Source: Candidatus Saccharimonadota bacterium (GTDB lineage Bacteria; Bacteroidota; Bacteroidia; Flavobacteriales; Blattabacteriaceae). From it: 32,000 nt of DNA. The notes beneath the pieces are model-generated. The model did no database searches and was not told where the DNA came from. It was given only the letters and a program-made list of their open reading frames with translations. This document shows, piece after piece, positions 2,454 through 27,476 of this stretch. Made by a program: the position numbers and the translations under genes. Location: assembly GCF_964030875.1 (NCBI RefSeq), contig NZ_OZ034981.1, positions 30,001 through 62,000 of the forward strand, in the 5' to 3' direction. How positions within the stretch are numbered: position 1 is the first letter of the stretch; each line of letters starts with the position of its first letter.

Positions 2454-4532
2454 ATGAAAATATCTTACAACTGGCTGACGAAATATTTATACTCTGAATT
2501 AACGGCTAACCATATTTGTGAAATACTTACTGATATAGGGCTTGAAGTAGAAAATTGTGAAGAATTATATAGTCCACTTTTAACGAAAAAAGATTATCTA
2601 CTTGAAGTAAATATTACACCTAATCGTTCATATGCTCTTAGTCATTTTGGTATAGCAAAAGATATTTATGCTGCTCTCAAGGTGAGAAAATATAAAGTAG
2701 AAATTCATAGACCTGATATAAAGAATTTTAAATCAGAGAAAAGTGTTTTATGTTTCCCAATCTCTATAAAATCTCCTGAACATTGTATACGTTATAGCGG
2801 ATGTTTTATAAAAGGTGTAAGAATCTCCCCCTCTCCTACTTGGCTACAGAAACGGTTACAATCTATACAATTAAATACTATTAATAATGTCGTAGACGTT
2901 ACCAACTTTGTTATGAACGAGATAGGGCAACCTATTCACGTTTTTGATTATGATAATATTAAAGGAGAAAAAATATACATAAAAACATTATCTAATAATG
3001 GGATACCGTTTCAAACAGTAGATAAGAGAAAATATCTCCTTCATAAGGAAGACCTAATGATTTGTGATACTCATAGACCACTTTTTTTAGCTGGTATTTT
3101 AGGAAGTATTCATTCAAGCGTTACTGATAAAACACAAAATATATTCCTTGAAAGCGCCTGTTTTAATACTATGAATATAAGAAAAAGTGTTAAAAGACAT
3201 GCTGTGAACACTGATGCTTCCTTTCGAGTTGAACGTGGAACAGATCCCGAACAAGTACTTTATGCTCTCAAACGAGCAGCACTACTAATACAAGAAATTG
3301 CAGGTGGAAGAATATCTGAACCTATAGATCTTTATCCTAAACCTGTAAAATGTTTTACAATAGAATTGCGTTATGAAACAATCAATAGGATTTTAGGTGA
3401 AACGCTTCGGAAGAATGAAGTCAAAAAAATTCTTTACTTATTGGATATAAATATTTTATCAGAAAATAAAAAAATGCTCAGGGTTTCTGTCCCCCCAAAG
3501 AGAATAGATGTCCAAAACGAATGTGATATCATAGAAGAAATTTTAAGAATGTATGGATATAATCGGGTAAAAACATCTGGAACCTTTTGTTTTTCTCTAA
3601 AGGTCGAAAAAAAAATACCTAATTATGAAACAACGAAAGAAAAAATATCCACATTTTTGAATGCACAAGGCTTTTATGAAGTAATTAATTTATCTATGAC
3701 GCATTACAAATATAAACAATTCTTCAGGGACGAATCTTTTAAAGCTATTGAACTATTAAATCCGCTTAGCGAAGATTGCTCCCTTTTGAGACAAAGTTTA
3801 TTGTTCGGACTTTTAGAACGTGTTTCTCATAACATTAATCATAGGAATACTTTTTTAAAACTCTTCGAATGGGGAAAAATTTATGGCAAAAAAAACGAAA
3901 AATATATAGAAAATGAACGTTTATCGTTGGTAATAAGTGGAAAAAAAAATAAAAAACATTGGTTACACTCCAATGAATTCTTTTCATTTTTTGCACTAAA
4001 AGGTATTGTGGAAGCTTTACTAAAAATCAGTGGGGTTACCCATTTTGAACAAATACTTACAGAAGACAACCTATTAGGTAATAGTCTTTTGTTTACCTAT
4101 AAACAGTATGATCTAGTTAGACTGGGATGTGTCAAGAAATCTATAATAGAGCATTTTGATATTAAACAAGAAGTATTTTATGCTGAAATATATTGGGAAT
4201 ATTTAATAAAAATATTTAAGGTAAACAGAATTGTTTTTAATAAATTGCCTAAATATCCTGGGGTTCGTAGAGATTTATCTATTTTGATAAATAGAAATAT
4301 ATCTTTTGAAGAACTCTATCAAGAGTCGAAAAAAACCGAAAAAAAACTTCTTAAAGAAGTACATCTATTTGATGTATATGAAGGAGAAAAGCTACCTTTC
4401 GGGAAAAAATCTTATGCTTTGAGTTTCTATTTTGAAGACCAAGAACGTACTCTAACTGTTGATCGTATAAATCATGTTATGGATAACATCCGTAACGCTC
4501 TTAAAAAATCCTTATATGCAGAGTTTAGATAG
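2454..4532 (+). CDS. pheT: Phenylalanine--tRNA ligase beta subunit, short form lacking the B2 OB-fold tRNA-binding domain
   Basis: 692-aa ORF. The N-terminus MKISYNWL..LTDIGLEVE is the B1 domain. It then runs almost directly into the ITPNRSYALSHFGIAKD motif that normally follows the roughly 100-aa OB-fold domain. B3/4, B5 and the C-terminal FDX-ACB-like end (KKSYALSFYFEDQERTLT) are present. Confidence 0.9.
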   Translation: MKISYNWLTKYLYSELTANHICEILTDIGLEVENCEELYSPLLTKKDYLLEVNITPNRSYALSHFGIAKDIYAALKVRKYKVEIHRPDIKNFKSEKSVLCFPISIKSPEHCIRYSGCFIKGVRISPSPTWLQKRLQSIQLNTINNVVDVTNFVMNEIGQPIHVFDYDNIKGEKIYIKTLSNNGIPFQTVDKRKYLLHKEDLMICDTHRPLFLAGILGSIHSSVTDKTQNIFLESACFNTMNIRKSVKRHAVNTDASFRVERGTDPEQVLYALKRAALLIQEIAGGRISEPIDLYPKPVKCFTIELRYETINRILGETLRKNEVKKILYLLDINILSENKKMLRVSVPPKRIDVQNECDIIEEILRMYGYNRVKTSGTFCFSLKVEKKIPNYETTKEKISTFLNAQGFYEVINLSMTHYKYKQFFRDESFKAIELLNPLSEDCSLLRQSLLFGLLERVSHNINHRNTFLKLFEWGKIYGKKNEKYIENERLSLVISGKKNKKHWLHSNEFFSFFALKGIVEALLKISGVTHFEQILTEDNLLGNSLLFTYKQYDLVRLGCVKKSIIEHFDIKQEVFYAEIYWEYLIKIFKVNRIVFNKLPKYPGVRRDLSILINRNISFEELYQESKKTEKKLLKEVHLFDVYEGEKLPFGKKSYALSFYFEDQERTLTVDRINHVMDNIRNALKKSLYAEFR

Positions 4533-4781: not shown

Positions 4782-5756
4782 TTAAGGGGTTTTAAGACGT
4801 TTCCATAAAGCCTCTTTGAGTTCTTCTAATCCTTTTTTATTATGAGAAGATATGAATATCGGATGTAAATCTAGAGGAATTTTTTCTTTAATACTTTGAT
4901 TGTCTAATAAATCAGATTTAGAAATAACCAAAAGATGCTTTTTATTCATAATATTAGGATTATAAGCCGATATCTCTTTCAAAAGAATATCATATTCTTT
5001 TACAACATCTCTAGAATTAGCAGGTATCAAAAAGACAAGCACTGCATTACGTTCAATATGACGAAGAAAACGATCCCCTATCCCTCTTCCTTTACTTGCC
5101 CCATCTATAATGCCAGGAATATCAGCCAGTATAAAGGATTGTTTATTTTTGTACTGCACAATTCCTAGTTGAGGAACTAGAGTCGTAAAAGCATAATCTG
5201 CAATTTTAGGTTTGGCTTCTGTAAGTACGGAAAGTAGTGTAGACTTTCCTGCATTAGGAAATCCGACGATCCCTACATCTGACAATATTTTTAGTTCTAA
5301 AAAAATCCATTCTTCTTTTCCTGTAAACCCAGGTTGTGAATATTTCTTTAACGCATTTCTAAAATGCCAATTACCTAGACCACCTCTTCCTCCCTCTAAC
5401 AGCATTTTTTTTTGCCTTTCCTGAGTGATTTCAAAAATCAGATTTTCTTTTTTATCTTTTACTATTGTTCCAATAGGGACTTGCAATACTAGATCTTGTC
5501 CTGACGCTCCTTTCATCCTATTTCCTTTTCCTGGTAGTCCGTTTTCAGCTTTATAATGCCTGTTATATTTAAAATGAAGTAACGTCCATATTTTACAATT
5601 CCCCTGCAAGAAAATACTTCCTCCATTTCCTCCATCTCCTCCGTCAAAACCACCTTTATACACAAATTTTTCCCTACGAAAATGTAATGACCCGGAACCT
5701 CCATCTCCACTTTTGCAAAAAATTTTTACTTGGTCTATGAAATTACCTGTATACAT
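4782..5756 (-). CDS. obg: GTPase Obg/CgtA
   Basis: 324-aa ORF with a glycine-rich Obg fold (GDGGSGSLHFRREKF..GGFDGGDGGNGG) and GTPase motifs (GFPNAGKST, DIPGII, SKSD). Confidence 0.9.
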   Translation of the reverse strand: MYTGNFIDQVKIFCKSGDGGSGSLHFRREKFVYKGGFDGGDGGNGGSIFLQGNCKIWTLLHFKYNRHYKAENGLPGKGNRMKGASGQDLVLQVPIGTIVKDKKENLIFEITQERQKKMLLEGGRGGLGNWHFRNALKKYSQPGFTGKEEWIFLELKILSDVGIVGFPNAGKSTLLSVLTEAKPKIADYAFTTLVPQLGIVQYKNKQSFILADIPGIIDGASKGRGIGDRFLRHIERNAVLVFLIPANSRDVVKEYDILLKEISAYNPNIMNKKHLLVISKSDLLDNQSIKEKIPLDLHPIFISSHNKKGLEELKEALWKRLKTP

Positions 5757-5857: not shown

Positions 5858-7249
5858 CTATATATGAATACATGTACCATAGGCATCAGATACAGCTTCC
5901 ATAATTGCTTCACTAAGAGTAGGATGAGGATGTATAGACTTAAGAATTTCATGACTGGTTGTTTCTAATTTACGAGCGATCACAGCTTCTGTAATTATGT
6001 CCGTAACACCTGTACCTATTATATGACATCCTAGCCATTCACCATATTTAGCATCAAAAATAACTTTAATAAAACCTTCATTTTCACCATTAATAGTGGA
6101 TTTTCCAAGAGCCGAAAAAGGAAATTTACCGACCTTAGTATCATATCCTTTTTCTTTAGTTTCTTTTTCAGTGAGACCTACTGAGGCTATTTCCGGACTG
6201 CAATAAATACAACTCGGAATATTTCCATAATCGATAGGTTCTACATCCAGACCTTGGATATGCTCTACACAGGTAAGGCCTTCGGAAGAAGCAACGTGTG
6301 CTAATGCAGGGCCGTGTACTACATCACCGATGGCATAATAACCATCAATATTTGTTCGATAAAAATTATCCACTATAATAGATCCCCTACGATCCATTTT
6401 AATACCTACTTCTTCTAATCCGAGTAATTCCACATTAGGCGTAACACCTACGGCTGAAAGTACTACATCAGTTTCTATAATTCTTTCTTGTTTAGGACCT
6501 TTAATAGAAACTTTTAGGTCTTTACCAGAGGTATCTACTTTAAATACTGATGAAGAAGTAAGAACTTCTATACCACTTTTTTTAAAAGAAAGTTCTAGTT
6601 GTTGAGAAATTTCCGAGTCTTCTGTTGGAAGAATATTAGCAAGCTTTTCTATTAAAGTAACTTTCGTTCCCAACGTATTATAAAAATAGGCAAATTCGAC
6701 TCCAATTGCTCCTGAACCTACAACCATCAGACGTTTAGGAAGCTCAGACAAGACAAGAGCTTGACGATAATCTATAATCTTCTTACCGTCCTGAGGAAGA
6801 TCGGGAAGATTTATAGAACGTGCTCCAGTAGCAAGGATAATGTACTGGGATGTGTATTCACATTCTTTTTCATTTTCTTTAAATACAATAACTTTTTTCC
6901 CAGGATGAATTTTCGCCCTTCCAAAAATCACTTCTATTTTATTTTTCCGCATCAAAAAATTAATCCCTTTTCTCATCTTTTCAGACAGATTTCTGCTACG
7001 TTTAATAATACTAAGAAAATCGAAATGAATATTTTCAGCGATCAATCCATAATCTTCTGCATGTTTAAGAGAATGAAATGTATTTGCACTTTTAAGCAAA
7101 GATTTAGTGGGTATGCACCCCCAATTTAGACAAATTCCACCAAGATGCTCTTTTTCAATAATGGCTGTTTTCAGACCTAATTGTGCAGCTCGTATCGCCG
7201 CTACATAACCACCGGGACCACTACCAATAACGATTAAATCAAAATCCAT
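5858..7249 (-). CDS. lpdA: Dihydrolipoyl dehydrogenase (E3)
   Basis: 463-aa ORF with the FAD site DLIVIGSGPGGYVAAIRAAQLG, the redox disulfide GGICLNWGCIPTK and the C-terminal HPHPTLSE interface motif. Confidence 0.9.
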   Translation of the reverse strand: MDFDLIVIGSGPGGYVAAIRAAQLGLKTAIIEKEHLGGICLNWGCIPTKSLLKSANTFHSLKHAEDYGLIAENIHFDFLSIIKRSRNLSEKMRKGINFLMRKNKIEVIFGRAKIHPGKKVIVFKENEKECEYTSQYIILATGARSINLPDLPQDGKKIIDYRQALVLSELPKRLMVVGSGAIGVEFAYFYNTLGTKVTLIEKLANILPTEDSEISQQLELSFKKSGIEVLTSSSVFKVDTSGKDLKVSIKGPKQERIIETDVVLSAVGVTPNVELLGLEEVGIKMDRRGSIIVDNFYRTNIDGYYAIGDVVHGPALAHVASSEGLTCVEHIQGLDVEPIDYGNIPSCIYCSPEIASVGLTEKETKEKGYDTKVGKFPFSALGKSTINGENEGFIKVIFDAKYGEWLGCHIIGTGVTDIITEAVIARKLETTSHEILKSIHPHPTLSEAIMEAVSDAYGTCIHI

Positions 7250-7416: not shown

Positions 7417-8325
7417 ATGAAGAAACAACTACGCGGGATAGGTATAGCTCTCGCAACGCCTTTTGACGAAAAAAATAGAGTAGATTTCAAAGGTTTAGAA
7501 CGACTAACAGAACACGTTTTAAAAGAAGATATAGATTATCTAGTTCTTCTAGGTACTACTGCTGAATCAGCAACATTGAAAAATGAGGAAAAGAACGATA
7601 TTATACGTTGTATTCATTCTATGAATAAAAAAAAAGTCCCTATTGTCCTCAGTATCGGAGGTAATAATACCGAAAAAGTAATTCAAAAAATTGAACAGAC
7701 CCAGATTTTTGATTTTGAAGCTATTCTTTCAATAGTACCTTATTATAATAGACCTTCCCAAGAAGGGATTTATCAGCATTTTAAACAAATAGTAGAGAAA
7801 ACCAAGGCTAAAATTATTTTATATAACGTACCTTCTCGAACAGGATCTAATATTCTTCCAAAAACTGTATTACGGCTTTCGAAAGAATTTGAAAATATTG
7901 TAGCTATTAAAGAAGTTTCTGGAAGCCTTATACAATCTTATGAAATCATAAAGGAAAAGCCTACACATTTCAGTGTAATTTCCGGAGACGATATCCTAGC
8001 TCTTCCTACTATTTTAGGTGGAGGGGACGGTCTGATATCAGTTCTTGGACAAGGTTTTCCAAATGTCTTTTCTAAAATGGTACATAACGCACTAGAAGGT
8101 AATGTGAAAGAGTCGTTTAAACATTATTATCAAATGTTAGATCTGATGAATCTTATTTATAAAGAAGGAAACCCTTCAGGTATTAAATCATTATTACATA
8201 TATTAAACGTATGTGAATCTTATGTTCGTTTACCTATTGTAAGAGCTTCAGAAATTCTTTCAAGAAAAATAGAGGAGGCTCTCAAGCGTTATATAAAAAT
8301 ATGTAACAAAAAAACTTCCGTATAG
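7417..8325 (+). CDS. dapA: 4-hydroxy-tetrahydrodipicolinate synthase
   Basis: 302-aa ORF with DapA family motifs (GIGIALATPF, LLGTTAESATL, YNVPSRTG, IKEVSG). Confidence 0.9.
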   Translation: MKKQLRGIGIALATPFDEKNRVDFKGLERLTEHVLKEDIDYLVLLGTTAESATLKNEEKNDIIRCIHSMNKKKVPIVLSIGGNNTEKVIQKIEQTQIFDFEAILSIVPYYNRPSQEGIYQHFKQIVEKTKAKIILYNVPSRTGSNILPKTVLRLSKEFENIVAIKEVSGSLIQSYEIIKEKPTHFSVISGDDILALPTILGGGDGLISVLGQGFPNVFSKMVHNALEGNVKESFKHYYQMLDLMNLIYKEGNPSGIKSLLHILNVCESYVRLPIVRASEILSRKIEEALKRYIKICNKKTSV

Positions 8326-8378: not shown

Positions 8379-8672
8379 ATGAACTATACCGAAATTATCG
8401 ACCGAAAAGAATTAGAAAAGTGTGGAGAAAATATTTATGTAATTATAAATATACTTGGGAAGCGTTCGAATAAAATTATCAATTATATTAAAATTAAATT
8501 ACAGAAACAACTTGAATCGTCCTCAAAAAATTTATTAGAGAATATTCTTGAAAAGAAAGAACAGATAGAAATCTATAGAACTTATGAAAATCTTCCGAAA
8601 CCGACCTCCATGGCTATTCAAGAATTGATAGATGGAAAGTTATTTTTCTATAACCCAAATGAGTATAATTAA
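8379..8672 (+). CDS. rpoZ: DNA-directed RNA polymerase omega subunit (Bacteroidota type), probable
   Basis: 97-aa ORF. Its layout NIYVIINILGKRSNKI...KEQIEIYRTYENLPKPTSMAIQELIDGKL resembles flavobacterial omega as recalled from the family; no search was run. Confidence 0.6.
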   Translation: MNYTEIIDRKELEKCGENIYVIINILGKRSNKIINYIKIKLQKQLESSSKNLLENILEKKEQIEIYRTYENLPKPTSMAIQELIDGKLFFYNPNEYN

Positions 8673-8713
8673 CCCCTAATGGAGCAGGAACTGCATAAAC
8701 CTGCGGCTAGAAT

Positions 8714-8904
8714 TTAAAACCCGTATTCGGATATCATGAATAAGTTACTCATCTTAAAGGTGAGACGTAAACTGCGCAAGCTTTAGCTGCTACACTAGCG
8801 TATAGCACGAACACTTTCTCTGTGGCAAGTGCACTTCCATCAAATACATACCCAGTAATTCCTTGTTTAGCGATACCTTGTTTAGCGATAAGTGTATGCG
8901 GTAT
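8714..8904 (-). pseudogene. Possible eroded transketolase C-terminal remnant
   Basis: A minus-strand open segment at 8749-8904 reads IPHTLIAKQGIAKQGITGYVFDGSALATEKVFVLYASVAAKACAVYVSPLR*. A downstream fragment in another frame reads SNLFMISEYGF*. In order, these resemble the transketolase C-terminal motifs IA+GGYVL.D, IFIATGSEV..A..AA and RVVSMP, then LLFEEFGFT. There is no start codon, the frames are broken, and much sequence is missing. Confidence 0.3.
8861..8890. repeat. 15-bp perfect tandem duplication (ccttgtttagcgata x2)
   Basis: Read directly at 8861-8875 and 8876-8890. On the minus strand it duplicates five codons (IAKQG IAKQG) in frame within the putative relic. Confidence 0.9.
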
Positions 8905-8971
8905 CTATAAAATATAAGCTTAGCATTCCAAAAGGAACACGAGATTTTTTACATTTTTGGTTGATCTCCTT

Positions 8972-9059
8972 CGTTATGATTTAACAGTGCCTTTTGCACG
9001 TTATGATTTAACAGTGCCTTTTGCACGTTATGATTTAACAGTGCCTTTTGCACGTTATG
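8972..9059. repeat. 27-bp tandem array, 3 perfect copies plus a 7-nt partial copy (unit cgttatgatttaacagtgccttttgca)
   Basis: Copies at 8972-8998, 8999-9025 and 9026-9052 are identical. Positions 9053-9059 repeat the first 7 nt. Confidence 0.95.
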
Positions 9060-9423
9060 TTTTTTCCTTTTAAAATCTATAAACAAGTATGGAGGTTGAA
9101 TAGTCCTCAAAAAGCTAGAATTTTATAAATGTGATGCCGATGTTATCAGCTCTAGATCAATTTAACTTTACGATGCCTTAACTCAGATTACCAGTTCAAT
9201 CACAGAGAATATAATTAAACATCTTTAAGTGTTTTTATAAATTCTTTTATGGTTATAAACGAGGAAAGAAGGCTTTAAATTTGAACCTTAGATTAGTTCG
9301 TGGTATTACACAGGAATGATATGCTAGGTCGGAGGGGTGCGGAACTTCCTTTGGGTTGAAAAACGTATACATTACGGATACATGCTAGACGTAATATTTA
9401 ATACATTCCATCATAATTATATA

Positions 9424-9467
9424 TCAACTGTCAACTGTCAACTGTAAACTGTCAACTGTCAACTGTC
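9424..9467. repeat. Heptanucleotide microsatellite (tcaactg) x6.3, one variant copy taaactg
   Basis: Read directly: tcaactg tcaactg tcaactg taaactg tcaactg tcaactg tc. Confidence 0.9.
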
Positions 9468-9598
9468 TAAACAACTTAAGTATGTTAATAAACGTGGATT
9501 TTACCATAATAGAAAAAGGAATTACAATCAATTTATCACTATGTAGAAAAAATAGCTAAATACTATCCGACCTTGAGAGGTCAGTGAACGTCAATATT

Positions 9599-10189
9599 TT
9601 AGGGTAGACAATATACCTTAAACACGGCTTCAAAAAGATTCTTTAACTCCAAAATTACTTTTTCCATAGAAAATTTCCGTCCTAATTCTTGAGCAATTGA
9701 ACTTACTCCTTTTCCTTTTAGCCCACAAGGGCTAATCTGATTAAAATAACTCATATCAGTATTAATGTTTAGCGCCAATCCATGCATACTTACCCAATTA
9801 CTCATTTTAATACCTATAGCACATATTTTTCGTGCAGAAGACTTTCCTACATCCAACCAAACTCCTGTTTCTCCTAATAATCTGTCACAAGACAATCCGT
9901 ATAGAGATAATAAACGAATGACAACTTCTTCTAAAGAACGTAAATATTTATGTATATCTATAAAAAAAGATTCTAAATCTAATATAGGATAAACTACCAG
10001 TTGTCCAGGACCATGGTAAGTAACATTACCTCCTCTGTCAATTTTGTAAAAACGGGCTCCTAATTGGTTCAGACGCTTTGTAGATAATAAAATGTAATCG
10101 TCATATTTAGCTTTTCTACCTATAGTATATACATGCGGATGTTCGGCTAATAAAAGATAACCGACATTTCTTTGATCTTTAAAAGACAT
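9599..10189 (-). CDS. lipB: Octanoyltransferase LipB, main (C-terminal 196-codon) reading frame; the N-terminal part lies upstream in another frame
   Basis: The ORF contains LLLAEHPHVYTIGRKA, DRGGNVTYHGPGQLVVYPI, RKICAIGIKMSNWVSMHGLALN and ISPCGL, which are LipB catalytic-core motifs. It lacks the usual N-terminal roughly 35 residues. Confidence 0.85.
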   Translation of the reverse strand: MSFKDQRNVGYLLLAEHPHVYTIGRKAKYDDYILLSTKRLNQLGARFYKIDRGGNVTYHGPGQLVVYPILDLESFFIDIHKYLRSLEEVVIRLLSLYGLSCDRLLGETGVWLDVGKSSARKICAIGIKMSNWVSMHGLALNINTDMSYFNQISPCGLKGKGVSSIAQELGRKFSMEKVILELKNLFEAVFKVYCLP

Positions 10190-10290
10190 TTTTTTTTAAT
10201 GAGAAGTTGTTGAAACAGATATTTTTGATATTCCCAAGACTTTAAATAATCTATAAGACCTAAATTATTTCCCCAAACAATTTTTTTCAT
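10147..10290 (-). pseudogene. lipB: lipB N-terminal fragment, out of frame with the main ORF at an A9 tract
   Basis: Minus-strand ATG at 10290 gives MKKIVWGNNLGLIDYLKSWEYQKYLFQQLLIKKK, then runs out of frame to a TAG at 10147-10149. The LGLxDY...W..Q pattern is the canonical LipB N-terminus. The frames meet in the + strand T9 run at 10189-10197. Confidence 0.7.
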
Positions 10291-10373: not shown

Positions 10374-10736
10374 CTATGCTAAAGAGGAGTTTCTTTTTTC
10401 TTTTAGACACGATTTTTTACCTCTTAGTTTAGAAAAGTAATAAATTTTTGATCGTCTGACTTTTCCTTTTTTATTAACTTCTATTTTTTTAATATTAGGT
10501 TGGCTTATTATAAATAAACGTTCAACTCCCACGTCTCCACTCATTTTTCTAACAGAAAAAGTGGCTGTATAACCTTCTCCTTTTTTTTTAATGACTACTC
10601 CTTTAAAGGATTGTACACGAATTTTTGATCCTTCTTTGATCTCAGAAAAAACAGTAATGGTATCTCCAGGATTAAAATTAGTACTCTCTTTTTTATAAAG
10701 AGATTTTTCTTGTACATATTTTATGAGTGTGTGCAT
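10374..10736 (-). CDS. rplS: 50S ribosomal protein L19
   Basis: 120-aa ORF; FNPGDTITV...RVQSFKGVVIKKKG...TFSVRK...GVERLF is the L19 signature. Confidence 0.9.
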   Translation of the reverse strand: MHTLIKYVQEKSLYKKESTNFNPGDTITVFSEIKEGSKIRVQSFKGVVIKKKGEGYTATFSVRKMSGDVGVERLFIISQPNIKKIEVNKKGKVRRSKIYYFSKLRGKKSCLKEKRNSSLA

Positions 10737-13858: not shown

Positions 13859-15085
13859 ATGAATTTATCATCTACTCTAGATGTAGAACTATTACGAACT
13901 TTAGCAGAAAAGTATGGGACACCCTTATACGTATACGATGCTGAGAAAATTATGAATCAGGATGAAAAAATAAAGCAAGCCTTTTCTTGTATAGATAAAC
14001 TTGGAATACACTATGCTTGCAAAGCAAACACGAATCTAAATATTTTAAAATTATTAAAAAAAAAAGGAATAGGATTAGATACTGTTTCTATTCAAGAGGT
14101 AGAGATTGGAATATTGGCAGGATTTACCCCAAAAAAAATTATATATACTCCTAATGGAGTCTCTATGGAGGAGATAATAAAAGCGAAAGAATTTGGGGTA
14201 CGTATTCACATAGATAATCTTTCTCTATTGGAGCAATTTGGACAAGAATTCTCTTTAGATTATCCTATCGGGATTCGGATTAATCCACATATTGTGGGTG
14301 GAGGTAATGAAAAAATTTCTGTTGGACATATCGATTCTAAATTTGGGATTTCTTACTATCAATTTCCCCATATCAAACGGATTGTAGAAAATACTAAGTT
14401 AAAAGTAGAAGGACTTCATATGCATACAGGCTCTGATATATTGGATGTAGAAATTTTTTTAAGAGGTGCTGATATTTTATTCGATGCAGCTATAAAATTC
14501 AAAGATCTAGAATATATAGATTTTGGCAGCGGTTTTAAAGTATCTTATAACCCGGTAGATGTCCCAACATATATTCAAAAGTTAGGACCTTTATTAGGTA
14601 AAAAAGTTAATAAATTTTATAACGAATATGGGAAAACACTTTGTTTAGTGTTTGAACCTGGAAAATTTCTCCTGAGTGAATCAGGTTATTTTCTTGTCAA
14701 AGTAAATACTATTAAACAAACTATTTCATCAGTTTTTGCTTGTGTAAATTCAGGTTTTAATCACTTTATTCGACCAATGTTTTACAATGCTTATCATAAC
14801 ATCGAAAATATTTCTAATCCGTCAGGACGTGTTCGTTTATATACAGTGGTAGGATATATATGTGAATCGGATACTTTTGGTTTAAATCAGAAAATAAGTG
14901 AAATTCATGAGGGAGATATTCTATGTTTGAGGAACGCCGGGGCTTATTGTTTTTGTATGTCCTCAAATTATAATTCTAGATATCGTCCGGCCGAAGTGAT
15001 GATTTATAAAAAACAGGATTATCTAATCAGACAAAGAGAAACTATTCAAGATATATTAAGAAATATAGTGGAAATAACTCTATAA
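13859..15085 (+). CDS. lysA: Diaminopimelate decarboxylase
   Basis: 408-aa ORF of the PLP-dependent Orn/DAP decarboxylase fold ([31 protein letters not shown]). Confidence 0.9.
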
Positions 15086-15396: not shown

Positions 15397-15546
15397 TTCT
15401 ATTCAGTTAATCCAGCGTGCATCGTTCTATTCAGTTAATCCAGCGTGCATCGTTCTATTCAGTTAATCCAGCGTGCATCGTTCTATTCAGTTAATCCAGC
15501 GTGCATCGTTCTATTCAGTTAATCCAGCGTGCATCGTTTTATTCTA
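15397..15546. repeat. 28-bp tandem array A, 5 perfect copies plus a partial copy (unit ttctattcagttaatccagcgtgcatcg)
   Basis: Identical copies start at 15397, 15425, 15453, 15481 and 15509. A degenerate partial copy follows from 15537. Confidence 0.95.
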
Positions 15547-15663: not shown

Positions 15664-15775
15664 TTTGGAACAGTAACTGAAGCGATGCTCCTTTGGAACA
15701 GTAACTGAAGCGATGCTCCTTTGGAACAGTAACTGAAGCGATGCTCCTTTGGAACAGTAACTGAAGCGATGCTCC
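15664..15775. repeat. 28-bp tandem array B, 4 perfect copies (unit tttggaacagtaactgaagcgatgctcc), related to the reverse complement of array A
   Basis: Identical copies start at 15664, 15692, 15720 and 15748. The rotated unit cgatgctcctttggaacagtaactgaag and rc(A) cgatgcacgctggattaactgaatagaa share cgatgc, tgga and taactgaa in the same order. Confidence 0.95.
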
Positions 15776-15908
15776 TAAAAAATTTTGCAGTGGTTAGTAA
15801 AGTAGCACATCAAATATTATCAAACAGGGGAGAATTTAGTACAATGTAATGCATATTACGCACATAGGTTTCGTGTCTCTCTATCTTTAATTTTTACGGC
15901 ATGCTTAT

Positions 15909-15933: not shown

Positions 15934-17862
15934 TTATTTATGTTGGACATATCTTGTTAAACGTTCTTGTCCTATTTCTTCTATAAAACGACTAGGGACT
16001 CCATAAACGAGTTTTCCCCAACGATAACGAGTTGTCGCGTAACTTAAAATCACCTGTTTCTGAGCTCGGGTTAGAGCTACATAAAACAGACGTCTTTCTT
16101 CTTCAAGATTAGCGTAATTTTTGACGCTAAGCATAGATGGAAAAAGATTTTCTTCCATACCCACTATAAAAATGATAGGAAATTCTAATCCTTTTGAGAG
16201 ATGAACAGTCATAAGAGAAACCCTATCATCATCAGTTTTTTCTATATCGCTAGCTAAGGCAATATTTTTTAAAAAAACAGAGAGTGAGGTATAGGCCTGT
16301 ATACTGTTTATAAATTCTTGTACATTTTCATAGCGGGAAAGACCTTCAGTAGGATTGTCTTTACATAAATCACTAAGTAAATCAGAAGTTTTAACCACTT
16401 CTTTAGCAGTAGCATACGCTCCTTCAGCTAATTTTATAGAACAATGTTTGATAATTACAAAAAACTCTTTAAGTTTGGCGGTTATTCTTTTATGAAGACA
16501 CATCTCTTTAGCATAAAAAGAGATATTATTTAATACTTCATACAGTGTTTTTCCATGTTTATCTGCAGTTACAAGAAGTTTATTAATAGTAGATGGTCCT
16601 ATTCCACGATGCGGATAGTTGATAATCCTAAGAAGAGCTTCCTCATCGTTTGGATTTACCAAAATCCGGAGATAAGCAAGTAAATCTTTAATTTCTTTTC
16701 TTTGATAAAAAGAAATACCTCCATAGATTTTATAAGGAATCTTCTTTTTGTTAAGAGACTCTTCCAGGGCTCTTGACTGAGCATTGGTACGGTAAAGAAT
16801 AGCGAAATCCTTGTTCTGCAATTTATATTGCAATTTTATTTCAAAAAGGGTATTTGCTACAAAATCACCTTCCTCTTTATCAGAAATAGCACCATAAAAT
16901 TTAATTTTTTCTCCTTTTTCGTTATTAGTCCAATTTTTTTTATACATCTGTTCCTTGTTACAAGCAATGACATTATTAGCTGCCTGTACAATATGTACAG
17001 TAGATCTATAATTCTGTTCTAATCGAAAAATTTTAGCATAGGGATAATCCAACTGGAAATTTTGTATATTTTTAATATTTGCTCCACGAAAAGCATAAAT
17101 GCTTTGTGCATCATCCCCTACTACAAATAGGTTTTTATAACGAGAGGCTAAAGCTCTGATGATAAGATATTGAGAGTAATTTGTGTCTTGATACTCATCT
17201 ACAAGAATATATTTGAACCGTTCTTGGTACTTGGATAACACCTCTGGAAAACGGGTGAAGAGTTCATTGGTACGTAATAGAATATCATCAAAATCCATAG
17301 CACCGTATTTAAAACAACGATCTATATAGGCTTGGTAAATATATCCTAAACGGGTAGCGTTTTGTGAATGACGTGTAAAATTATCAAAGTAATTCTGTAC
17401 GGTAATCAAATTGTTTTTTAGACGAGAAATTCTAGAAAGAACTGTTTTAGGTTTAGAAAAACATTTTTCTAAATGTAGCTCTTCAATGATTTTTTTAATG
17501 ACGTGTTCAGCGTCTTTCTGATCATAAATAGTATAATCTGAAGGATATCCTAACCTATAAATTTCTGTATGGAGTATTCTAGCAAATACTGAATGAAAAG
17601 TCCCAATACACAGATTTTTAATGTTGATATTTCCTGTTAAATGAGCAATCCGTTGCTTCATTTCTCTAGCAGATTTATTGGTAAAAGTAAGTGCTAGTAT
17701 ATGCAACGGATCAATACCTTGATTCATCAAATGAGCAATTCTATAAGTAAGTACACGAGTTTTTCCTGAACCCGCTCCAGCAATCACTATGATAGGTCCT
17801 GTTACAGTAGTAACAATTTTTAATTGAATAGAATTCAGATCGGCTATATAATTAAATTTCAT
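15934..17862 (-). CDS. uvrD: ATP-dependent DNA helicase, UvrD/PcrA/Rep family (SF1)
   Basis: 642-aa ORF with the SF1 motifs AGAGSGKTRVLT, DEYQDTN, GDDAQSIYAFRGA, QNYRS, TVHLSKGLEFP and YVALTRAQ. It is shorter than typical family members. The symbol is a family-level guess. Confidence 0.85.
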   Translation of the reverse strand: MKFNYIADLNSIQLKIVTTVTGPIIVIAGAGSGKTRVLTYRIAHLMNQGIDPLHILALTFTNKSAREMKQRIAHLTGNINIKNLCIGTFHSVFARILHTEIYRLGYPSDYTIYDQKDAEHVIKKIIEELHLEKCFSKPKTVLSRISRLKNNLITVQNYFDNFTRHSQNATRLGYIYQAYIDRCFKYGAMDFDDILLRTNELFTRFPEVLSKYQERFKYILVDEYQDTNYSQYLIIRALASRYKNLFVVGDDAQSIYAFRGANIKNIQNFQLDYPYAKIFRLEQNYRSTVHIVQAANNVIACNKEQMYKKNWTNNEKGEKIKFYGAISDKEEGDFVANTLFEIKLQYKLQNKDFAILYRTNAQSRALEESLNKKKIPYKIYGGISFYQRKEIKDLLAYLRILVNPNDEEALLRIINYPHRGIGPSTINKLLVTADKHGKTLYEVLNNISFYAKEMCLHKRITAKLKEFFVIIKHCSIKLAEGAYATAKEVVKTSDLLSDLCKDNPTEGLSRYENVQEFINSIQAYTSLSVFLKNIALASDIEKTDDDRVSLMTVHLSKGLEFPIIFIVGMEENLFPSMLSVKNYANLEEERRLFYVALTRAQKQVILSYATTRYRWGKLVYGVPSRFIEEIGQERLTRYVQHK

Positions 17863-17941: not shown

Positions 17942-17976
17942 TATTCCATCGATGTGGTATTCCATCGATGTGGTAT
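17942..17976. repeat. 16-bp tandem duplication (tattccatcgatgtgg x2.2)
   Basis: Copies at 17942-17957 and 17958-17973 are identical, and tat is repeated at 17974-17976. Each unit holds the palindrome catcgatg. Confidence 0.85.
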
Positions 17977-19081: not shown

Positions 19082-19321
19082 TTAATAATAAAGTATTGAA
19101 ATAATTCCGAGGTGTTTTTCTATTTGTTTTGCTATTTTATCAATAGACACTTCAGTACATTTTACCTCTAAGGTATAACGCATTATATATTGTTTTTTTG
19201 CATCATAAATATTTAGATAAATCATCCTAAAATTACTCCGATTCAATAAAATAATAACACGGTTAATCAACCTTTCAATATTACTGGCTAGAATTGAAAT
19301 TTTAATACAAACGGATTTCAT
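19082..19321 (-). CDS. ilvN: Acetolactate synthase small (regulatory) subunit, minimal ACT-domain form
   Basis: 79-aa ORF between ilvB and ilvC with an ACT-like pattern (ISILASNIERLINRVIILLNRSNFRMIYLNI...MRYTLEV). It overlaps the ilvB 3' end by 20 nt. Confidence 0.65.
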   Translation of the reverse strand: MKSVCIKISILASNIERLINRVIILLNRSNFRMIYLNIYDAKKQYIMRYTLEVKCTEVSIDKIAKQIEKHLGIISILYY

Positions 19322-20993
19322 CTACGGATGCTCCAATCGTTATCATGGGGAAAACATTATATTCTCTTTCTACGATTATTTCCAGTAGATAGGCTGTATT
19401 ACATTCAAACATTTCTTTTACAGCTTCTGGGATTTTTTTTCTTTTTTCTATTTTCTTCCCACTAATATTATAAGCTTGAGCTAAACGTATAAAATCAGGA
19501 TTGAGTAATGCGCTGAAAGCATAACGTCTTTTAAAAAAAAGCTCTTGCCATTGTCTCACCATACCTAGAAATCCGTTATTGAGTAACACAATTTTTATTG
19601 GAAGATTATTTTTAAGAAGAATTCCTAATTCTTGAAAGGTCATTTGAAAACCTCCATCTCCTATTACGCATATAATTTGACGATATATCGCTCCTAATTG
19701 CGATCCTATAGCTGCTGGCAAAGAAAAACCCATTGTCCCTAATCCTCCTGAGGTAATTTGGCTTTTACTATAGGAAAAATAAAAATATCGTGAAGCTATC
19801 ATCTGATGTTGTCCGACATCGGTTACCATGACAGCATTTTGATTTTTATATTGATTAATCCACTGTATTATTTCTCCCATAGTCAAGCTTTCTTTTTTGG
19901 GATACAAATCTTTTTGGACAATTTTTTCCTCTTGCTTTTGTATAGTTATGAAATACGATATCCATTCTTTACGAATATTTTCCTGAACTCTTTCAGTCAA
20001 TAAAGGTAAAGTCTTTTTGCAATCTCCTAATACAGGTACAACACATGGAATGTTTTTTCCAATTTCACAAGCTTCTATTTCCAAATGAATTATTTTAGCT
20101 TGTATAGCATATATGTTTATATTTCCAGTGACTCTATCGTCGAAACGCATTCCTATTGCGATAAGAATATCACATTGATTAGTTAATACATTGGGGGCAT
20201 AATGACCATGCATACCAATCATTCCGACAAAAAGAGGATGATTATTATCTATTATACCCAGTCCCAAAAGAGTACTTGCAATAGGTATATTTGCTTTTTC
20301 TGAGAGAGCTTTTAACTCTTCTTCTGCTTCAGCTAGAATTACTCCCTGTCCGACTAAAATCAATGGTCTTTTTGCTGCATTAATTAAAATGGCAGCTTCT
20401 TCTATTTTATTGACCTCCACCTTAGGTAAGGAACGAAAATACGATACTTGATGAAAAAGGATTTCTTCAAAAATAGCTTCTTGAAGCTGAGCGTCTTTCG
20501 TGATATCTATCAGGACTGGACCAGGACGTCCACTACGAGCGATGTCAAATGATTTCCGTATTGTTTTACAAATATCCTGTGCTTTAGTAATTTGCACATT
20601 CCACTTAGTTACAGGGAATGAAAGATCTAAAATATTGGTTTCCTGAAAAGCGTCTGTACCCAAAAGATTATATGACACTTGTCCAGTAATACAAATTATT
20701 GGAGTGCTATCTATAAGTGCATCAGCTAAACCGGTAATTAGATTAGTAGCTCCTGGACCTGAGGTAGATATACATACTCCAACCTTTCCACTAACCCTAG
20801 CATATCCCTGAGCAGCATGTATAGCTCCTTGTTCATGACGCGTCAGTATATGACATATATTATCTGCATGTCGATCTAAAGAATCATAAACAGGCATAAT
20901 AGCCCCTCCGGGATAACCAAAGAGATACTCTACACGTTCTATTAAAAGATTTTTGACTAAAATATCACATCCTTTATCTTTTTTTAGATTCAT
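19302..20993 (-). CDS. ilvB: Acetolactate synthase large subunit (ThDP-dependent)
   Basis: ThDP enzyme motifs are present (GYPGGAIMPVYD, GPGATNL, GDGGFQM...NN). The preferred start is the ATG at 20993 (MNLKKDKGCDILV...), which forms an ATGA overlap with the ilvD stop. The track ORF extends to 21020. Confidence 0.9.
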   Translation of the reverse strand: MNLKKDKGCDILVKNLLIERVEYLFGYPGGAIMPVYDSLDRHADNICHILTRHEQGAIHAAQGYARVSGKVGVCISTSGPGATNLITGLADALIDSTPIICITGQVSYNLLGTDAFQETNILDLSFPVTKWNVQITKAQDICKTIRKSFDIARSGRPGPVLIDITKDAQLQEAIFEEILFHQVSYFRSLPKVEVNKIEEAAILINAAKRPLILVGQGVILAEAEEELKALSEKANIPIASTLLGLGIIDNNHPLFVGMIGMHGHYAPNVLTNQCDILIAIGMRFDDRVTGNINIYAIQAKIIHLEIEACEIGKNIPCVVPVLGDCKKTLPLLTERVQENIRKEWISYFITIQKQEEKIVQKDLYPKKESLTMGEIIQWINQYKNQNAVMVTDVGQHQMIASRYFYFSYSKSQITSGGLGTMGFSLPAAIGSQLGAIYRQIICVIGDGGFQMTFQELGILLKNNLPIKIVLLNNGFLGMVRQWQELFFKRRYAFSALLNPDFIRLAQAYNISGKKIEKRKKIPEAVKEMFECNTAYLLEIIVEREYNVFPMITIGASVDEIRLY

Positions 20994-22681
20994 GTTTCTA
21001 TGAATTGGTCTGTAACGCACCCTTCGGAAGCGTAAGAAACTGTTTTTGAATATTTATAGAGATATCCCATATTTACTTTAAAAGTCGGAGCTCTCCATTT
21101 TTTTCTCCGTATATACCATTCATTTTCATTTATTTCAAGGTTAATAGTATTATTAACTGCATTTATAGTAACAATATCTCCATCATTTATTAATGCGATA
21201 GGACCACCTTCTTGTGCTTCAGGAGTGATATGACCTACAACAAAACCGTGTGATCCTCCAGAAAATCTACCATCAGTGATAAGAGCTACTTCTTTTCCCA
21301 AACCTGCTCCAGTTATATAAGCCGTAGGTTTTAGCATTTCAGGCATCCCTGGTCCTCCTTTAGGACCTACATATCGAATAACTATGACTTCTCCTTTATT
21401 TATTTTACAAAGTAAAATAGAACGATTGAAAGCATCCTCTGAATTAAACACTCTAGCACGTCCTGAAAATTTCATTTTTTCTTGTCCAGTAATCTTTGCC
21501 ACAGATCCTCCTGGAGCAATATTTCCATAAAGAATGCGAAAATGTCCTTCTTTTTTAATGGGATGATTTATAGAATAAATAACTTTCTGATCAAAAGACA
21601 GCGAGGGGACATCTTTTAAATTTTCTTTTAAAGTGTCTCCAGTAACTGTAAGACAGTCTCCTTCAAGGAGACCATTTTCCAACAAATATTTCATAATCAC
21701 TGGAATTCCACCTATAGCATGTATATCTTCCATTAAAAATTTCCCACTAGGTTTTAGATTTCCAATGAGAGGAACACTATCGTTAATTTGTTGAAAATCT
21801 GTAAGTGTAAGGTCAATTTCTGCTGTTTTAGCAATTGCTAATAAATGCAGTATTAGATTAGTGGACCCTCCGATAGCAGTAGTTAGACTTATCGCATTTT
21901 TTAAAGAGTTTTTAGTAATAATCTTTTTAGGTTTAATATCTTTCTGCAAAAGTTTTTGAATCACTCCCCCCATCTTAAAACACTCCCATTCTTTATCTGC
22001 ACCAATAGCAGGTGTAGAAGAAGAATAAGGTAAGGTCATTCCCATTGCTTCAAGAGCAGCTGCCATAGTATTAGCTGTATACATCCCACCGCAAGCACCA
22101 GCACCAGGACAAGAATTTTTTATAATCTTTTTATATTCTTCTTCGGATATTTTTTTAGTTTTCCTTTTACCTAAAGCTTCAAAAGATGATACTACGTCTA
22201 GTTTTTCACCTTTATAATAACCTGAAGCAATACTACCACCATATACGATAACTGAAGGACGATTAATTCTAATGAGAGCAATTAGAACACCAGGCATATT
22301 TTTATCGCAACCAGGTATGGCTATTATACCATCATAATGCTGAGAGTTTGCTACTGTTTCTATACTATCAGCAATAATTTCTCGAGAAGGTAAAGAATAT
22401 CTCATCCCTGGAGTTCCCATAGATATACCATCACTTACGCCTATAGTGTTAAATCGTAAACCGACTAACTCTTTTTCGTGAACAGATTTTTTTATACTCC
22501 TTCCTAAACGATTCAAATGCATATTGCAAGGATTTCCCTCGTACCAGTTGCTTACAATCCCTACCTGCGCTTTTTTAAAATATTCTTCTGGAAGTCCTGT
22601 AGCATACAGCATAGCCTTAGCTGCTGGAAGATTTGTATTTTGCGTGAGTTGTGCACTCAAATAGTTAATCTTTTTATTCAT
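20990..22681 (-). CDS. ilvD: Dihydroxy-acid dehydratase
   Basis: 563-aa ORF with IlvD/Edd motifs (CDKNMPG, SLITDGRFSG-like ALITDGRFSGGSHG, GGPIAL). Confidence 0.95.
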   Translation of the reverse strand: MNKKINYLSAQLTQNTNLPAAKAMLYATGLPEEYFKKAQVGIVSNWYEGNPCNMHLNRLGRSIKKSVHEKELVGLRFNTIGVSDGISMGTPGMRYSLPSREIIADSIETVANSQHYDGIIAIPGCDKNMPGVLIALIRINRPSVIVYGGSIASGYYKGEKLDVVSSFEALGKRKTKKISEEEYKKIIKNSCPGAGACGGMYTANTMAAALEAMGMTLPYSSSTPAIGADKEWECFKMGGVIQKLLQKDIKPKKIITKNSLKNAISLTTAIGGSTNLILHLLAIAKTAEIDLTLTDFQQINDSVPLIGNLKPSGKFLMEDIHAIGGIPVIMKYLLENGLLEGDCLTVTGDTLKENLKDVPSLSFDQKVIYSINHPIKKEGHFRILYGNIAPGGSVAKITGQEKMKFSGRARVFNSEDAFNRSILLCKINKGEVIVIRYVGPKGGPGMPEMLKPTAYITGAGLGKEVALITDGRFSGGSHGFVVGHITPEAQEGGPIALINDGDIVTINAVNNTINLEINENEWYIRRKKWRAPTFKVNMGYLYKYSKTVSYASEGCVTDQFIET

Positions 22682-25679: not shown

Positions 25680-26027
25680 TTAGGAGTGCAAGAATTTTTT
25701 TTTCTCTAGTAGTTCATCTTTACTTTCTATAGATTCTTCATCCAGAACGCAACAATCCACTGGACATACAGAAGCACATCTGGGCTCATCGTAAAAACCT
25801 ACACATTCAGTACATTTATCTGCAACAATAAAATAAATATCATTTTTTTTAGGTGCTTGAGGTTTACATGCTTCTGTGGTAACACCCGATTTAAGTGGAA
25901 TTACACCTTTCAAATTTGTACCATCTGAAAAACGCCACTTAAACGATCCTTCGTAAATAGCATTATTGGGGCATTCAGGTTCGCATGCTCCACAGTTAAT
26001 GCATTCCTCAGTAATTTTGATAGCCAT
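25680..26027 (-). CDS. Ferredoxin, 2x[4Fe-4S] type
   Basis: 115-aa ORF with cysteine clusters CINCGACEPECP and CTECVGF...CASVCP. Confidence 0.85.
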   Translation of the reverse strand: MAIKITEECINCGACEPECPNNAIYEGSFKWRFSDGTNLKGVIPLKSGVTTEACKPQAPKKNDIYFIVADKCTECVGFYDEPRCASVCPVDCCVLDEESIESKDELLEKKKFLHS

Positions 26028-26687: not shown

Positions 26688-27476
26688 TTGCGTTATTTTA
26701 TTGAACTATCTTTTAATGGAACTAAATATCATGGTTGGCAGATACAGAAAACCGGAATATCCGTCGAGGAAGTGTTAGAAAATTGTCTATCCTCTCTATT
26801 AAAGATGCCAGTTAATATTATTGGAGCTGGAAGGACAGATAGCGGGGTCCACGCCAAACAATTTTTTGCTCACTTTGATTATCCATATTTTCTGACCCCA
26901 AGGTTTATACAGAAACTTAATTCATTCTTACCTAAAGACATTAAAGTATACAATATTTACTTGATGCAACCGAAAGCACATGCACGTTTCAGTGCTCTAT
27001 GCCGTACTTATGAATATTTTATTTCTTTAGGGAAAAGTCCTTTCTTTAAAGAATTTAGTTGGCAATGGTTATCTAATCCACCTGACATTGCAAAAATGAA
27101 CCAAGCAGCTATGATCTTAAAAAGATACGAAGATTTTAGTACTTTCTGTAAGTCTCATTCTAATAATAAAACAAGTTTTTGTAAAATAGAATATTCTTAT
27201 TGGAAATACAAGAAGGGGTTATTGTGTTTCCAAATAACGTCTAATAGATTTTTAAGAAACATGGTTAGATCTATTGTTGGAACTCTTATTAGAGTCGGCA
27301 TAGGGAAAATTGATTCAAAAGATTTTTGCCAAATTGTTGAATCTAAAAATAGTAAAATGGCAGGATGTTCAGTACCAGCAAAAGGATTATTCTTAAAATC
27401 TGTATCTTATCCAAGCGATATTTTTTGTATTACTCCCTGTCTTTTGATGAGACGAGAAATTGGTCGTATTCTTTAA
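26688..27476 (+). CDS. truA: tRNA pseudouridine(38-40) synthase TruA
   Basis: 262-aa ORF starting at [23 protein letters not shown] and the catalytic [11 protein letters not shown] motif are present. The 3' end overlaps rpoC by 47 nt. Confidence 0.85.

Follow-up and report, generated by a model that had tools for sequence, protein, structure and literature searches.

The 32,000-nucleotide window analysed here comes from Walczuchella ICPU, the symbiont of Icerya purchasi, and carries a lipB gene that is split into two overlapping open reading frames (ORFs) at a run of nine adenines (A9) on the sense strand. This split is genuine and has been inherited, the lesion lies beside the tract, and the gene has evolved at close to the rate of its intact neighbours. 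We see about an even chance that lipB is a leaky gene kept by selection and rescued mainly through transcriptional slippage at the A9, by which some transcripts would gain the one A that joins the two frames.

The locus lies on the minus strand (Table 1). An ATG opens an upstream peptide, MKKIVWGNNLGLIDYLKSWEYQKYLFQQLLIKKK, which then runs into an out-of-frame tail. The A9 supplies codons 32-34 of this ORF, and its final A doubles as the A of the ATG that opens the downstream ORF. The earlier note on this DNA had placed the tract, the downstream ORF and the TAA that closes the downstream frame exactly where they lie. It had also claimed that the upstream ATG opens a genuine LipB N-terminus in the other frame and that A10 in place of A9 would give a full-length LipB, and both claims stand. 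Conceptual insertion of one A fuses the frames (...LLIKKKMSFKDQ...) into a protein of 34 + 196 = 230 amino acids (aa) with no stop between them. The closest species-representative genome is Candidatus Walczuchella monophlebidarum from Llaveia axin (LLAX, CP006873), and 31 of the 34 residues encoded upstream are identical to its intact LipB, far beyond chance.

The fused protein scores above the cut-offs of the LipB profiles: NCBIfam NF010925 (182.7 bits; cut-off 155), TIGR00214 (164.9 bits; cut-off 83.55) and Pfam PF21948 (153.7 bits; cut-off 27). The Pfam LplA-B_cat match covers positions 1-199 of the fused protein, as opposed to 20-199 for the 196-aa ORF alone, and the alignment with Thermus thermophilus LipB (2qht) spans the junction (E=1.5e-44). 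In an alignment of 15 LipBs, the catalytic K155 and C189 and the N-terminal LGxxDY..W..Q element sit in invariant columns, and seven family-invariant residues (L10, G11, D14, Y15, W19, Q22 and K33) all fall within the N-terminal 34 codons. In its end-to-end alignment, invariant Lys and Cys, and N-terminal element, the protein resembles the canonical LipBs of T. thermophilus (2qht/2qhs) and Mycobacterium tuberculosis (1w66). Unlike them, it is encoded not by one uninterrupted reading frame but by two overlapping ORFs in different frames, and its alpha1-beta2 loop is shorter. An AlphaFold (AF2) model of the intact LLAX LipB, which served only as a map of secondary structure, has a predicted local distance difference test score (pLDDT) of 87.8 and places beta1 at residues 4-12, alpha1 at 15-35, a loop at 36-44 and beta2 at 45-53. 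Beta1 and the 21-residue alpha1 have pLDDT values of 90-94, and the loop is of low confidence (about 68). Mapped on this model, the frame junction falls at the end of alpha1 and the start of the loop, a segment whose length is highly variable among Flavobacteriia.

The same break occurs well beyond the genome in which it was noticed. A corresponding pair of 42-aa and 196-aa ORFs with an A9 is present in the complete genomes of ICSE (CP170563), CRGE (CP170565) and CRMU (CP170566), where NCBI annotates the shorter piece as a hypothetical protein and the longer as LipB. An independent Logan assembly of SRR29856495 has the same split and the same A9. Together with ICPU, these three genomes make up the whole Crypticerya plus Icerya subclade, sister to Drosicha plus Llaveia. 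Because the frameshift is common to all four, it arose on the Icerya/Crypticerya stem, and no further indel or stop has accumulated in the split lipB of any of them. Homopolymers are classic sites of error, and the break could in principle be an assembly or sequencing artefact hiding an intact gene with A10. We consider this extremely improbable. Five independent sequences, namely four separately sequenced genomes and the Logan re-assembly, share the A9 and the frame break, and a homopolymer miscount is dismissed on this basis. The ICPU data are moreover PCR-free Illumina reads at 1,523x (PMC12188211), and A9 is likewise found in the intact gene of LLAX, from which the difference in frame is fully accounted for by a 4-bp deletion outside the tract.

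That deletion corrects one part of the earlier note, which had described lipB as split by a frameshift inside the A9. The gene is split, but by a lesion directly 3' of the tract. The intact orthologue in LLAX (239 aa), the only uninterrupted lipB in Walczuchella, has the same A9, which there encodes Lys-Lys-Lys in frame. Compared with LLAX, one TGTC unit of TGTCTGTC is absent from the split genomes directly after the tract, a loss of four bases that causes the frameshift, as are a further 6 bp (TGTTTC) after TTTTAAAGA, whose absence leaves the frame unchanged. In outgroup LipBs the loop at this point is of equal length or longer. An LLAX-like ancestor needs one event and a frameshifted ancestor two; the 4-bp deletion is therefore most likely the derived state. 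Judged from these alignments, the A9 is ancestral in-frame sequence coding for three lysines and not the site of mutation. The earlier note had asked for tract length to be compared in relatives. All 8 Walczuchella sequences compared have A9, whether their lipB is intact, split or dead, and variation in tract length among strains was rejected. A separate deletion, of 32 nt, begins at this A9 in Drosicha symbionts and in the lineage represented by L091, and is flanked by AAATGTC direct repeats. The tract is thus a deletion hotspot, as three separate deletions abut it.

We compared the evolution of the split gene with that of intact and dead sequences. In a three-taxon relative-rate test, lipB on the Iceryini branch evolved at 1.28x the rate of its intact neighbours (lon, rplS, dapA and orf97 pooled; p=0.23), whereas the same test gave 5.0x for the dead lipB of Drosicha symbionts (p=6e-9). 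Within the Icerya/Crypticerya clade, 19 of 692 lipB sites are variable, compared to 79 of 3688 in intact coding sequence (p=0.33) and 82 of 1583 in non-coding sequence (p=0.01), which places lipB at about half the non-coding level. The split gene has 23 replacements, of which 2, both conservative, affect positions conserved among LipBs, a class that makes up 36% of all positions (P=0.003); no stops arose. In the Drosicha copy the corresponding count is 6 of 17, with 3 stops in addition. Conservation extends to the N-terminal 34 codons, with 2 variable sites of 102 against 8 of 73 in the adjoining spacer (p=0.018). The hallmarks of a pseudogene (rate rise, extra stops or indels, catalytic loss) are absent from all four split genomes and are all present in the Drosicha copy (L085-L090; about 4465-5140 in L086), which has stops at codons 20, 107 and 215, radical substitutions of invariant residues and a 6-bp deletion that takes out the catalytic Pro-Cys. 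A fair summary of these several, partly independent tests, with P values of roughly 0.003-0.04, would be relaxed yet persisting constraint. In its rate and in its avoidance of conserved residues, the split gene behaves as a constrained one, consistent with the rescue that the earlier note had proposed.

Selection on a partner enzyme may bear on this. The earlier note had pointed to an intact lpdA, encoding dihydrolipoyl dehydrogenase, as a sign that lipoylation is still needed. The gene is indeed complete in the window and evolves under purifying selection in the Icerya/Crypticerya clade, where its ratio of nonsynonymous to synonymous polymorphism (pN/pS) is 0.28-0.36. Among the lineages compared, it is intact only there; the copies of Drosicha symbionts and of the ERZ15609813/ERR10687444 lineage (L091/L092) are fragmented or shrunken. 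As a pointer to lipoylation it is weakened by LLAX, where lpdA has several frame-breaking indels in its visible 5' part even though lipB is intact. The clade in which the split lipB stays open is the only one that keeps lipoamide dehydrogenase, a pattern that fits a continuing need for lipoylation.

Taking these observations together, we propose the following history. On the stem of the Icerya/Crypticerya branch, the 4-bp deletion of a TGTCTGTC unit would have occurred 3' of a pre-existing A9, with the in-frame 6-bp deletion alongside it. As the A9 equals the RNA:DNA hybrid in length, RNA polymerase could slip backwards on it, and some transcripts would then be A10. Such transcripts would read ...LLIKKK-MSFKDQ... 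and encode the 230-aa LipB. Compared to the ancestral ...NKKKCLSFKDVSQRNV..., the product (...IKKK-MSFKDQRNV...) would differ solely in a shorter surface loop between alpha1 and beta2. A -1 ribosomal slip on A_AAA_AAA would yield this protein too and may add to its supply. As a modifier that acts catalytically, LipB would be needed in small amounts, such that a minority of corrected product could be enough; selection, we propose, therefore kept both halves open. We infer that slippage occurs and that its product is made and active. The dominant transcription errors in A/T runs are insertions of a single nucleotide, which increase exponentially as the run lengthens (PMC5574713), so the required extra A is the favoured error. 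Runs of 9 A/T nucleotides slip in bacteria, and corrected transcripts make up 12-50% in the frameshifted genes of Buchnera and Blochmannia (PMC5009743).

The closest parallels are these same Buchnera and Blochmannia genes, in which poly(A)-tract slippage rescues frameshifts (Tamas et al. 2008; Wernegreen et al. 2010, both as cited in PMC3971599; also PMC5009743 and PMC3017870). As in those cases, the host genome is that of an AT-rich obligate insect endosymbiont, a long sense poly(A) tract of about 9 nt or more lies at the break, one additional A restores the ORF, and the frameshift is shared by diverged lineages in a gene that is otherwise undegraded and not accelerated. Unlike in those cases, the indel is a 4-bp tandem-repeat deletion beside the tract rather than a change in homopolymer length, the A9 being common to intact, split and dead copies. 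The organism also belongs to the Bacteroidota and not to the gammaproteobacteria, the A9 is shorter than most validated tracts, and slippage at lipB is predicted from sequence. Slippage rescue has already been invoked for Walczuchella by both genome papers (PMC3971599, PMC12188211). Choi et al. 2025 screened fragmented genes for tracts of >8 bp and flagged carB, trpC and mnmE as potentially rescuable (PMC12188211). lipB resides in the same genomes as these three genes and matches them in the mechanism proposed and in its sequence-only level of evidence. It differs from them in that its frameshift is demonstrated clade-wide, together with an evolutionary rate like that of an intact gene. A third comparison is to dnaX of T. 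thermophilus and to insertion sequence (IS) transposases (A9 or A_AAA_AAG; PMC5009743), where an A-run likewise lies at overlapping frames and slippage is possible at the level of RNA or ribosome. Those systems are programmed, give two useful products in set ratios and often have stimulators, whereas we found no stimulator at lipB. Given also that its short upstream product has no evident function, lipB looks like corrective rather than programmed recoding.

Several points weigh against rescue by slippage. Within the clade, the ratio of nonsynonymous to synonymous change (dN/dS) in lipB is 0.57 (13 replacements, 6 synonymous), which is not significantly below 1 (p=0.19), nor significantly above the 0.30 of its neighbours (p=0.30; few events). 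The stem branch has 11 replacements and 1 synonymous change, and the pairwise and tree-wise dN/dS values rest on too few events to decide. Selection on the split gene is relaxed at best. Within-clade indels number 0 in lipB compared to 43 events in 2,361 non-coding columns (nominal P about 1e-5), a contrast we downgraded to less than its nominal strength because the non-coding controls are rich in tandem repeats and because the dead Drosicha lipB has itself gained only 2 indels per about 28 substitutions. The A9 persists even in dead Drosicha copies; therefore its conservation is uninformative on selection for slippage, and it is at the low end of tract lengths shown to slip. We found no fused 230-aa version in a collection of 15 billion proteins, and the main text of Choi et al. 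does not name lipB as slippage-rescuable (PMC12188211). At least two further, independent inactivations of lipB have occurred within the genus, one in Drosicha symbionts and one in L091/L092, with only fragments of about 72-94% identity left in the L091 lineage (2591-3119), and the gene is therefore dispensable in some Walczuchella. Finally, LLAX is reported to have no genes for fatty-acid synthesis and only ispB, menA and menB as cofactor genes, and lipA is unlisted (PMC3971599). A source of octanoyl-ACP (acyl carrier protein) and the presence of lipA are therefore doubtful, and a lipoate-independent route from 2-oxoglutarate, korB, has been mentioned for Walczuchella (Choi et al. 2025, PMC12188211).

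These points bear on the possibility that lipB is a young pseudogene, killed by the 4-bp deletion and now decaying, with the A9 a coincidence or merely the mutational cause as a deletion hotspot. Arguing for this, lipB degraded independently elsewhere in the genus, and Walczuchella is unusually rich in pseudogenes, with an eroding energy metabolism (PMC12188211). The dN/dS value and the skewed stem branch would be expected, and the missing indels count for little, given how few the dead copy has gained. Further, 6 intact genes of the window contain 7 sense A9-A10 tracts and 32 pseudogenized coding sequences are predicted genome-wide, so that one lesion beside a tract is not very improbable. 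Counter to this, the frameshift predates the Icerya/Crypticerya split, yet both halves remain open in 4 of 4 genomes. The branch rate resembles that of intact neighbours and not that of the dead copy, variable sites are half as dense as in non-coding sequence, conserved positions are avoided without any stop, and lpdA is under purifying selection in this clade only. On balance we think decay unlikely, while giving it more weight than the other alternatives.

The remaining alternatives would keep the gene alive by other means. Translation could start internally at the downstream ATG, in which case the 196-aa ORF would function alone, or with a separate N-terminal peptide of 42-47 aa, and no recoding would be needed. 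In Bacteroidia, initiation without a Shine-Dalgarno sequence is favoured by an A at -3, other upstream A's and low structure (PMC6847099). Eight A's precede this ATG in an unstructured region, matching these signals; both the catalytic Lys and the catalytic Cys lie in the 196-aa part, which carries the name LipB in the NCBI annotation of the sister genomes; and this reading accounts equally well for constraint on the C-terminal part. The 196-aa product would, however, be without beta1 and alpha1, core elements that hold the seven invariant residues of the 15 LipBs, and stand-alone activity is therefore unlikely. The intact gene of LLAX also contains AAAAAAAAATG, out of frame there, and this start context is therefore no adaptation. 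Conservation of the N-terminal 34 codons above the adjoining spacer would be needless for a stand-alone C-terminal fragment; a two-piece enzyme would account for it, and we know of no precedent for a split LipB. We regard an internal start as improbable. We give slightly less credence again to -1 ribosomal frameshifting as the main rescue, in which ribosomes reading AUU AAA AAA AAA would slip on A_AAA_AAA and continue with AUG UCU. In its favour, the zero frame holds a canonical X_XXY_YYZ heptamer, the TAA (10198-10196) is just upstream of where the -1 frame opens, and the product is identical to that of A10 transcripts. Corrective frameshifting has been discussed for endosymbionts and organelles (PMC5009743). 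Some Walczuchella genomes reportedly carry mnmE, which is required to modify U34 in tRNA-Lys, as a pseudogene (PMC12188211), and its loss could, by inference, raise slippage at AAA codons. We found no stimulatory structure at the usual spacing of 5-9 nt downstream (minimum free energy -11.4 kcal/mol, shuffle mean -9.6 kcal/mol, z=-0.65), the sole hairpin beginning 21 nt away, and for this reason we rank a -1 ribosomal slip second to transcriptional slippage. Slippage of this kind is usually low when unstimulated. Stimulators of the Shine-Dalgarno type are reported not to be read by Bacteroidia ribosomes.

Table 1. Features of the split lipB locus, of the rest of the window and of counterparts in relatives.
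Feature	Position	Strand	Remarks
Upstream ORF	10147..10290	-	ATG 10290; 47 aa = 34 LipB residues + 13-residue out-of-frame tail; stop at 10147
LipB N-terminal 34 codons	10189..10290	-	beta1 + helix alpha1; frame of ATG 10290
A9 tract (sense), T9 on + strand	10189..10197	-	candidate slippage site; also A_AAA_AAA -1 slippery heptamer
TAA stop	10196..10198	-	closes downstream frame just 5' of junction; read directly from sequence
Downstream ORF	9599..10189	-	opens at ATG 10189; 196 codons + stop; LipB catalytic body with K155, PCG motif, C189 (fused numbering)
Lesion site relative to intact LLAX gene	10175..10188	-	sequence alignments including mafft
Terminator-like hairpin just past lipB stop	9567..9584	-	consensus match only
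lpdA, dihydrolipoyl dehydrogenase, intact	5858..7249	-	TIGR01350 571 bits (cut-off 408.8)
Eroded lpdA counterparts	L001 6477-6699; L086 7557-8313; L091 15-456; L092 1125-1602		
In-frame sense A9-A10 tracts	3607-3615, 3941-3949 (pheT); 7627-7635 (dapA); 14056-14065 (lysA)		A10 in lysA
In-frame sense A9 tracts, continued	5405-5413 (obgE); 10581-10589 (rplS); 25695-25703 (ferredoxin)		
Tandem repeats	8972-9063; 9424-9467; 15397-15544; 15664-15776; also 8861-8890, 17942-17976		
lipB-orf97 spacer	8673-9598		926 bp
ORFs with Pfam HGTP_anticodon, relatives	L001 3714-3965; L086 5099-5401		
orf97, 97-aa ORF	8379-8672	+	
pheT	2454-4532		
pcrA/uvrD-like ORF	15934-17862		642 aa
ilvB and ilvD ORFs	19302-21020; 20990-22681	-	
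ilvB start (GTG)/ilvD end overlap	20990-21020	-	31 nt
truA (+)/rpoC (-) 3' end overlap	27430-27476		convergent, 47 nt

The window also contains fmt, dnaN, pheT, obgE, lpdA, dapA, rplS, lon, lysA, a pcrA/uvrD-like helicase gene, ilvC, ilvB, ilvD, lysS, argH, a ferredoxin gene, truA, rpoC and the end of rpoB. Across its 32 kb there are 30 A/T runs at least 8 long, compared to about 7 expected from base composition (an estimate). Non-coding stretches include near-perfect tandem repeats of 94-100% identity (27 bp x3.4, 7 bp x6.3, 28 bp x5.3 and 28 bp x4.0), and most of the indels seen in sister genomes fall within such stretches. The spacer between lipB and orf97 is an eroded remnant of an aminoacyl-tRNA synthetase; the equivalent region of LLAX and Drosicha symbionts has ORFs of 83-100 aa with Pfam HGTP_anticodon, and the window has no such ORF. 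The 97-aa ORF itself matches no NCBIfam family, has a faint Pfam RNA_pol_Rpb6 match in relatives and is the most strongly constrained of the neighbouring ORFs (within-clade pN/pS 0-0.08). It may be rpoZ, encoding the omega subunit.

Two other genes may be truncated or eroding. pheT matches profile positions 154-798 only and is without its N-terminal roughly 150 residues, and the pcrA/uvrD-like ORF falls short of the 725-position PcrA profile (691, cut-off 911). A pair of overlapping minus-strand ORFs was considered as a second split gene and rejected, as these are ilvB and ilvD, each complete, with the GTG start of ilvB overlapping the end of ilvD. truA and rpoC also overlap, in convergent orientation, at their 3' ends. 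Besides tRNAs, we found no Rfam families in the window.

For annotation, the 196-aa and 42-aa pieces should be recorded together, either as a single gene dependent on recoding or as a pseudogene, and the choice alters the metabolic reconstruction of lipoate-dependent enzymes in Icerya and Crypticerya symbionts. A stronger proposition is that a frameshift beside an in-frame A9 has been kept by selection since before the divergence of Icerya and Crypticerya, with LipB obligatorily dependent on recoding throughout the clade. On the sequence comparisons described here we find this possible, and lean slightly against it. If true, a conserved gene dependent on recoding would apparently be described here for the first time in an endosymbiont of the Bacteroidota. 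The phenomenon itself is familiar and the gain incremental; what lipB may add is that a rescuable frameshift need not change the homopolymer itself. Should A9 slip appreciably, the intact genes that bear such tracts would pay in frameshifted transcripts. Within one genus, and with the same A9, lipB is intact in the symbiont of Llaveia, split but constrained in those of Icerya and Crypticerya, and dead in those of Drosicha, a series that makes the idea that slippage buffers frameshifts directly testable. If the stronger proposition holds, ordinary Lys-Lys-Lys tracts would also prove to be latent 'safety nets', through which an indel close by can become fixed in a gene that the cell still requires.

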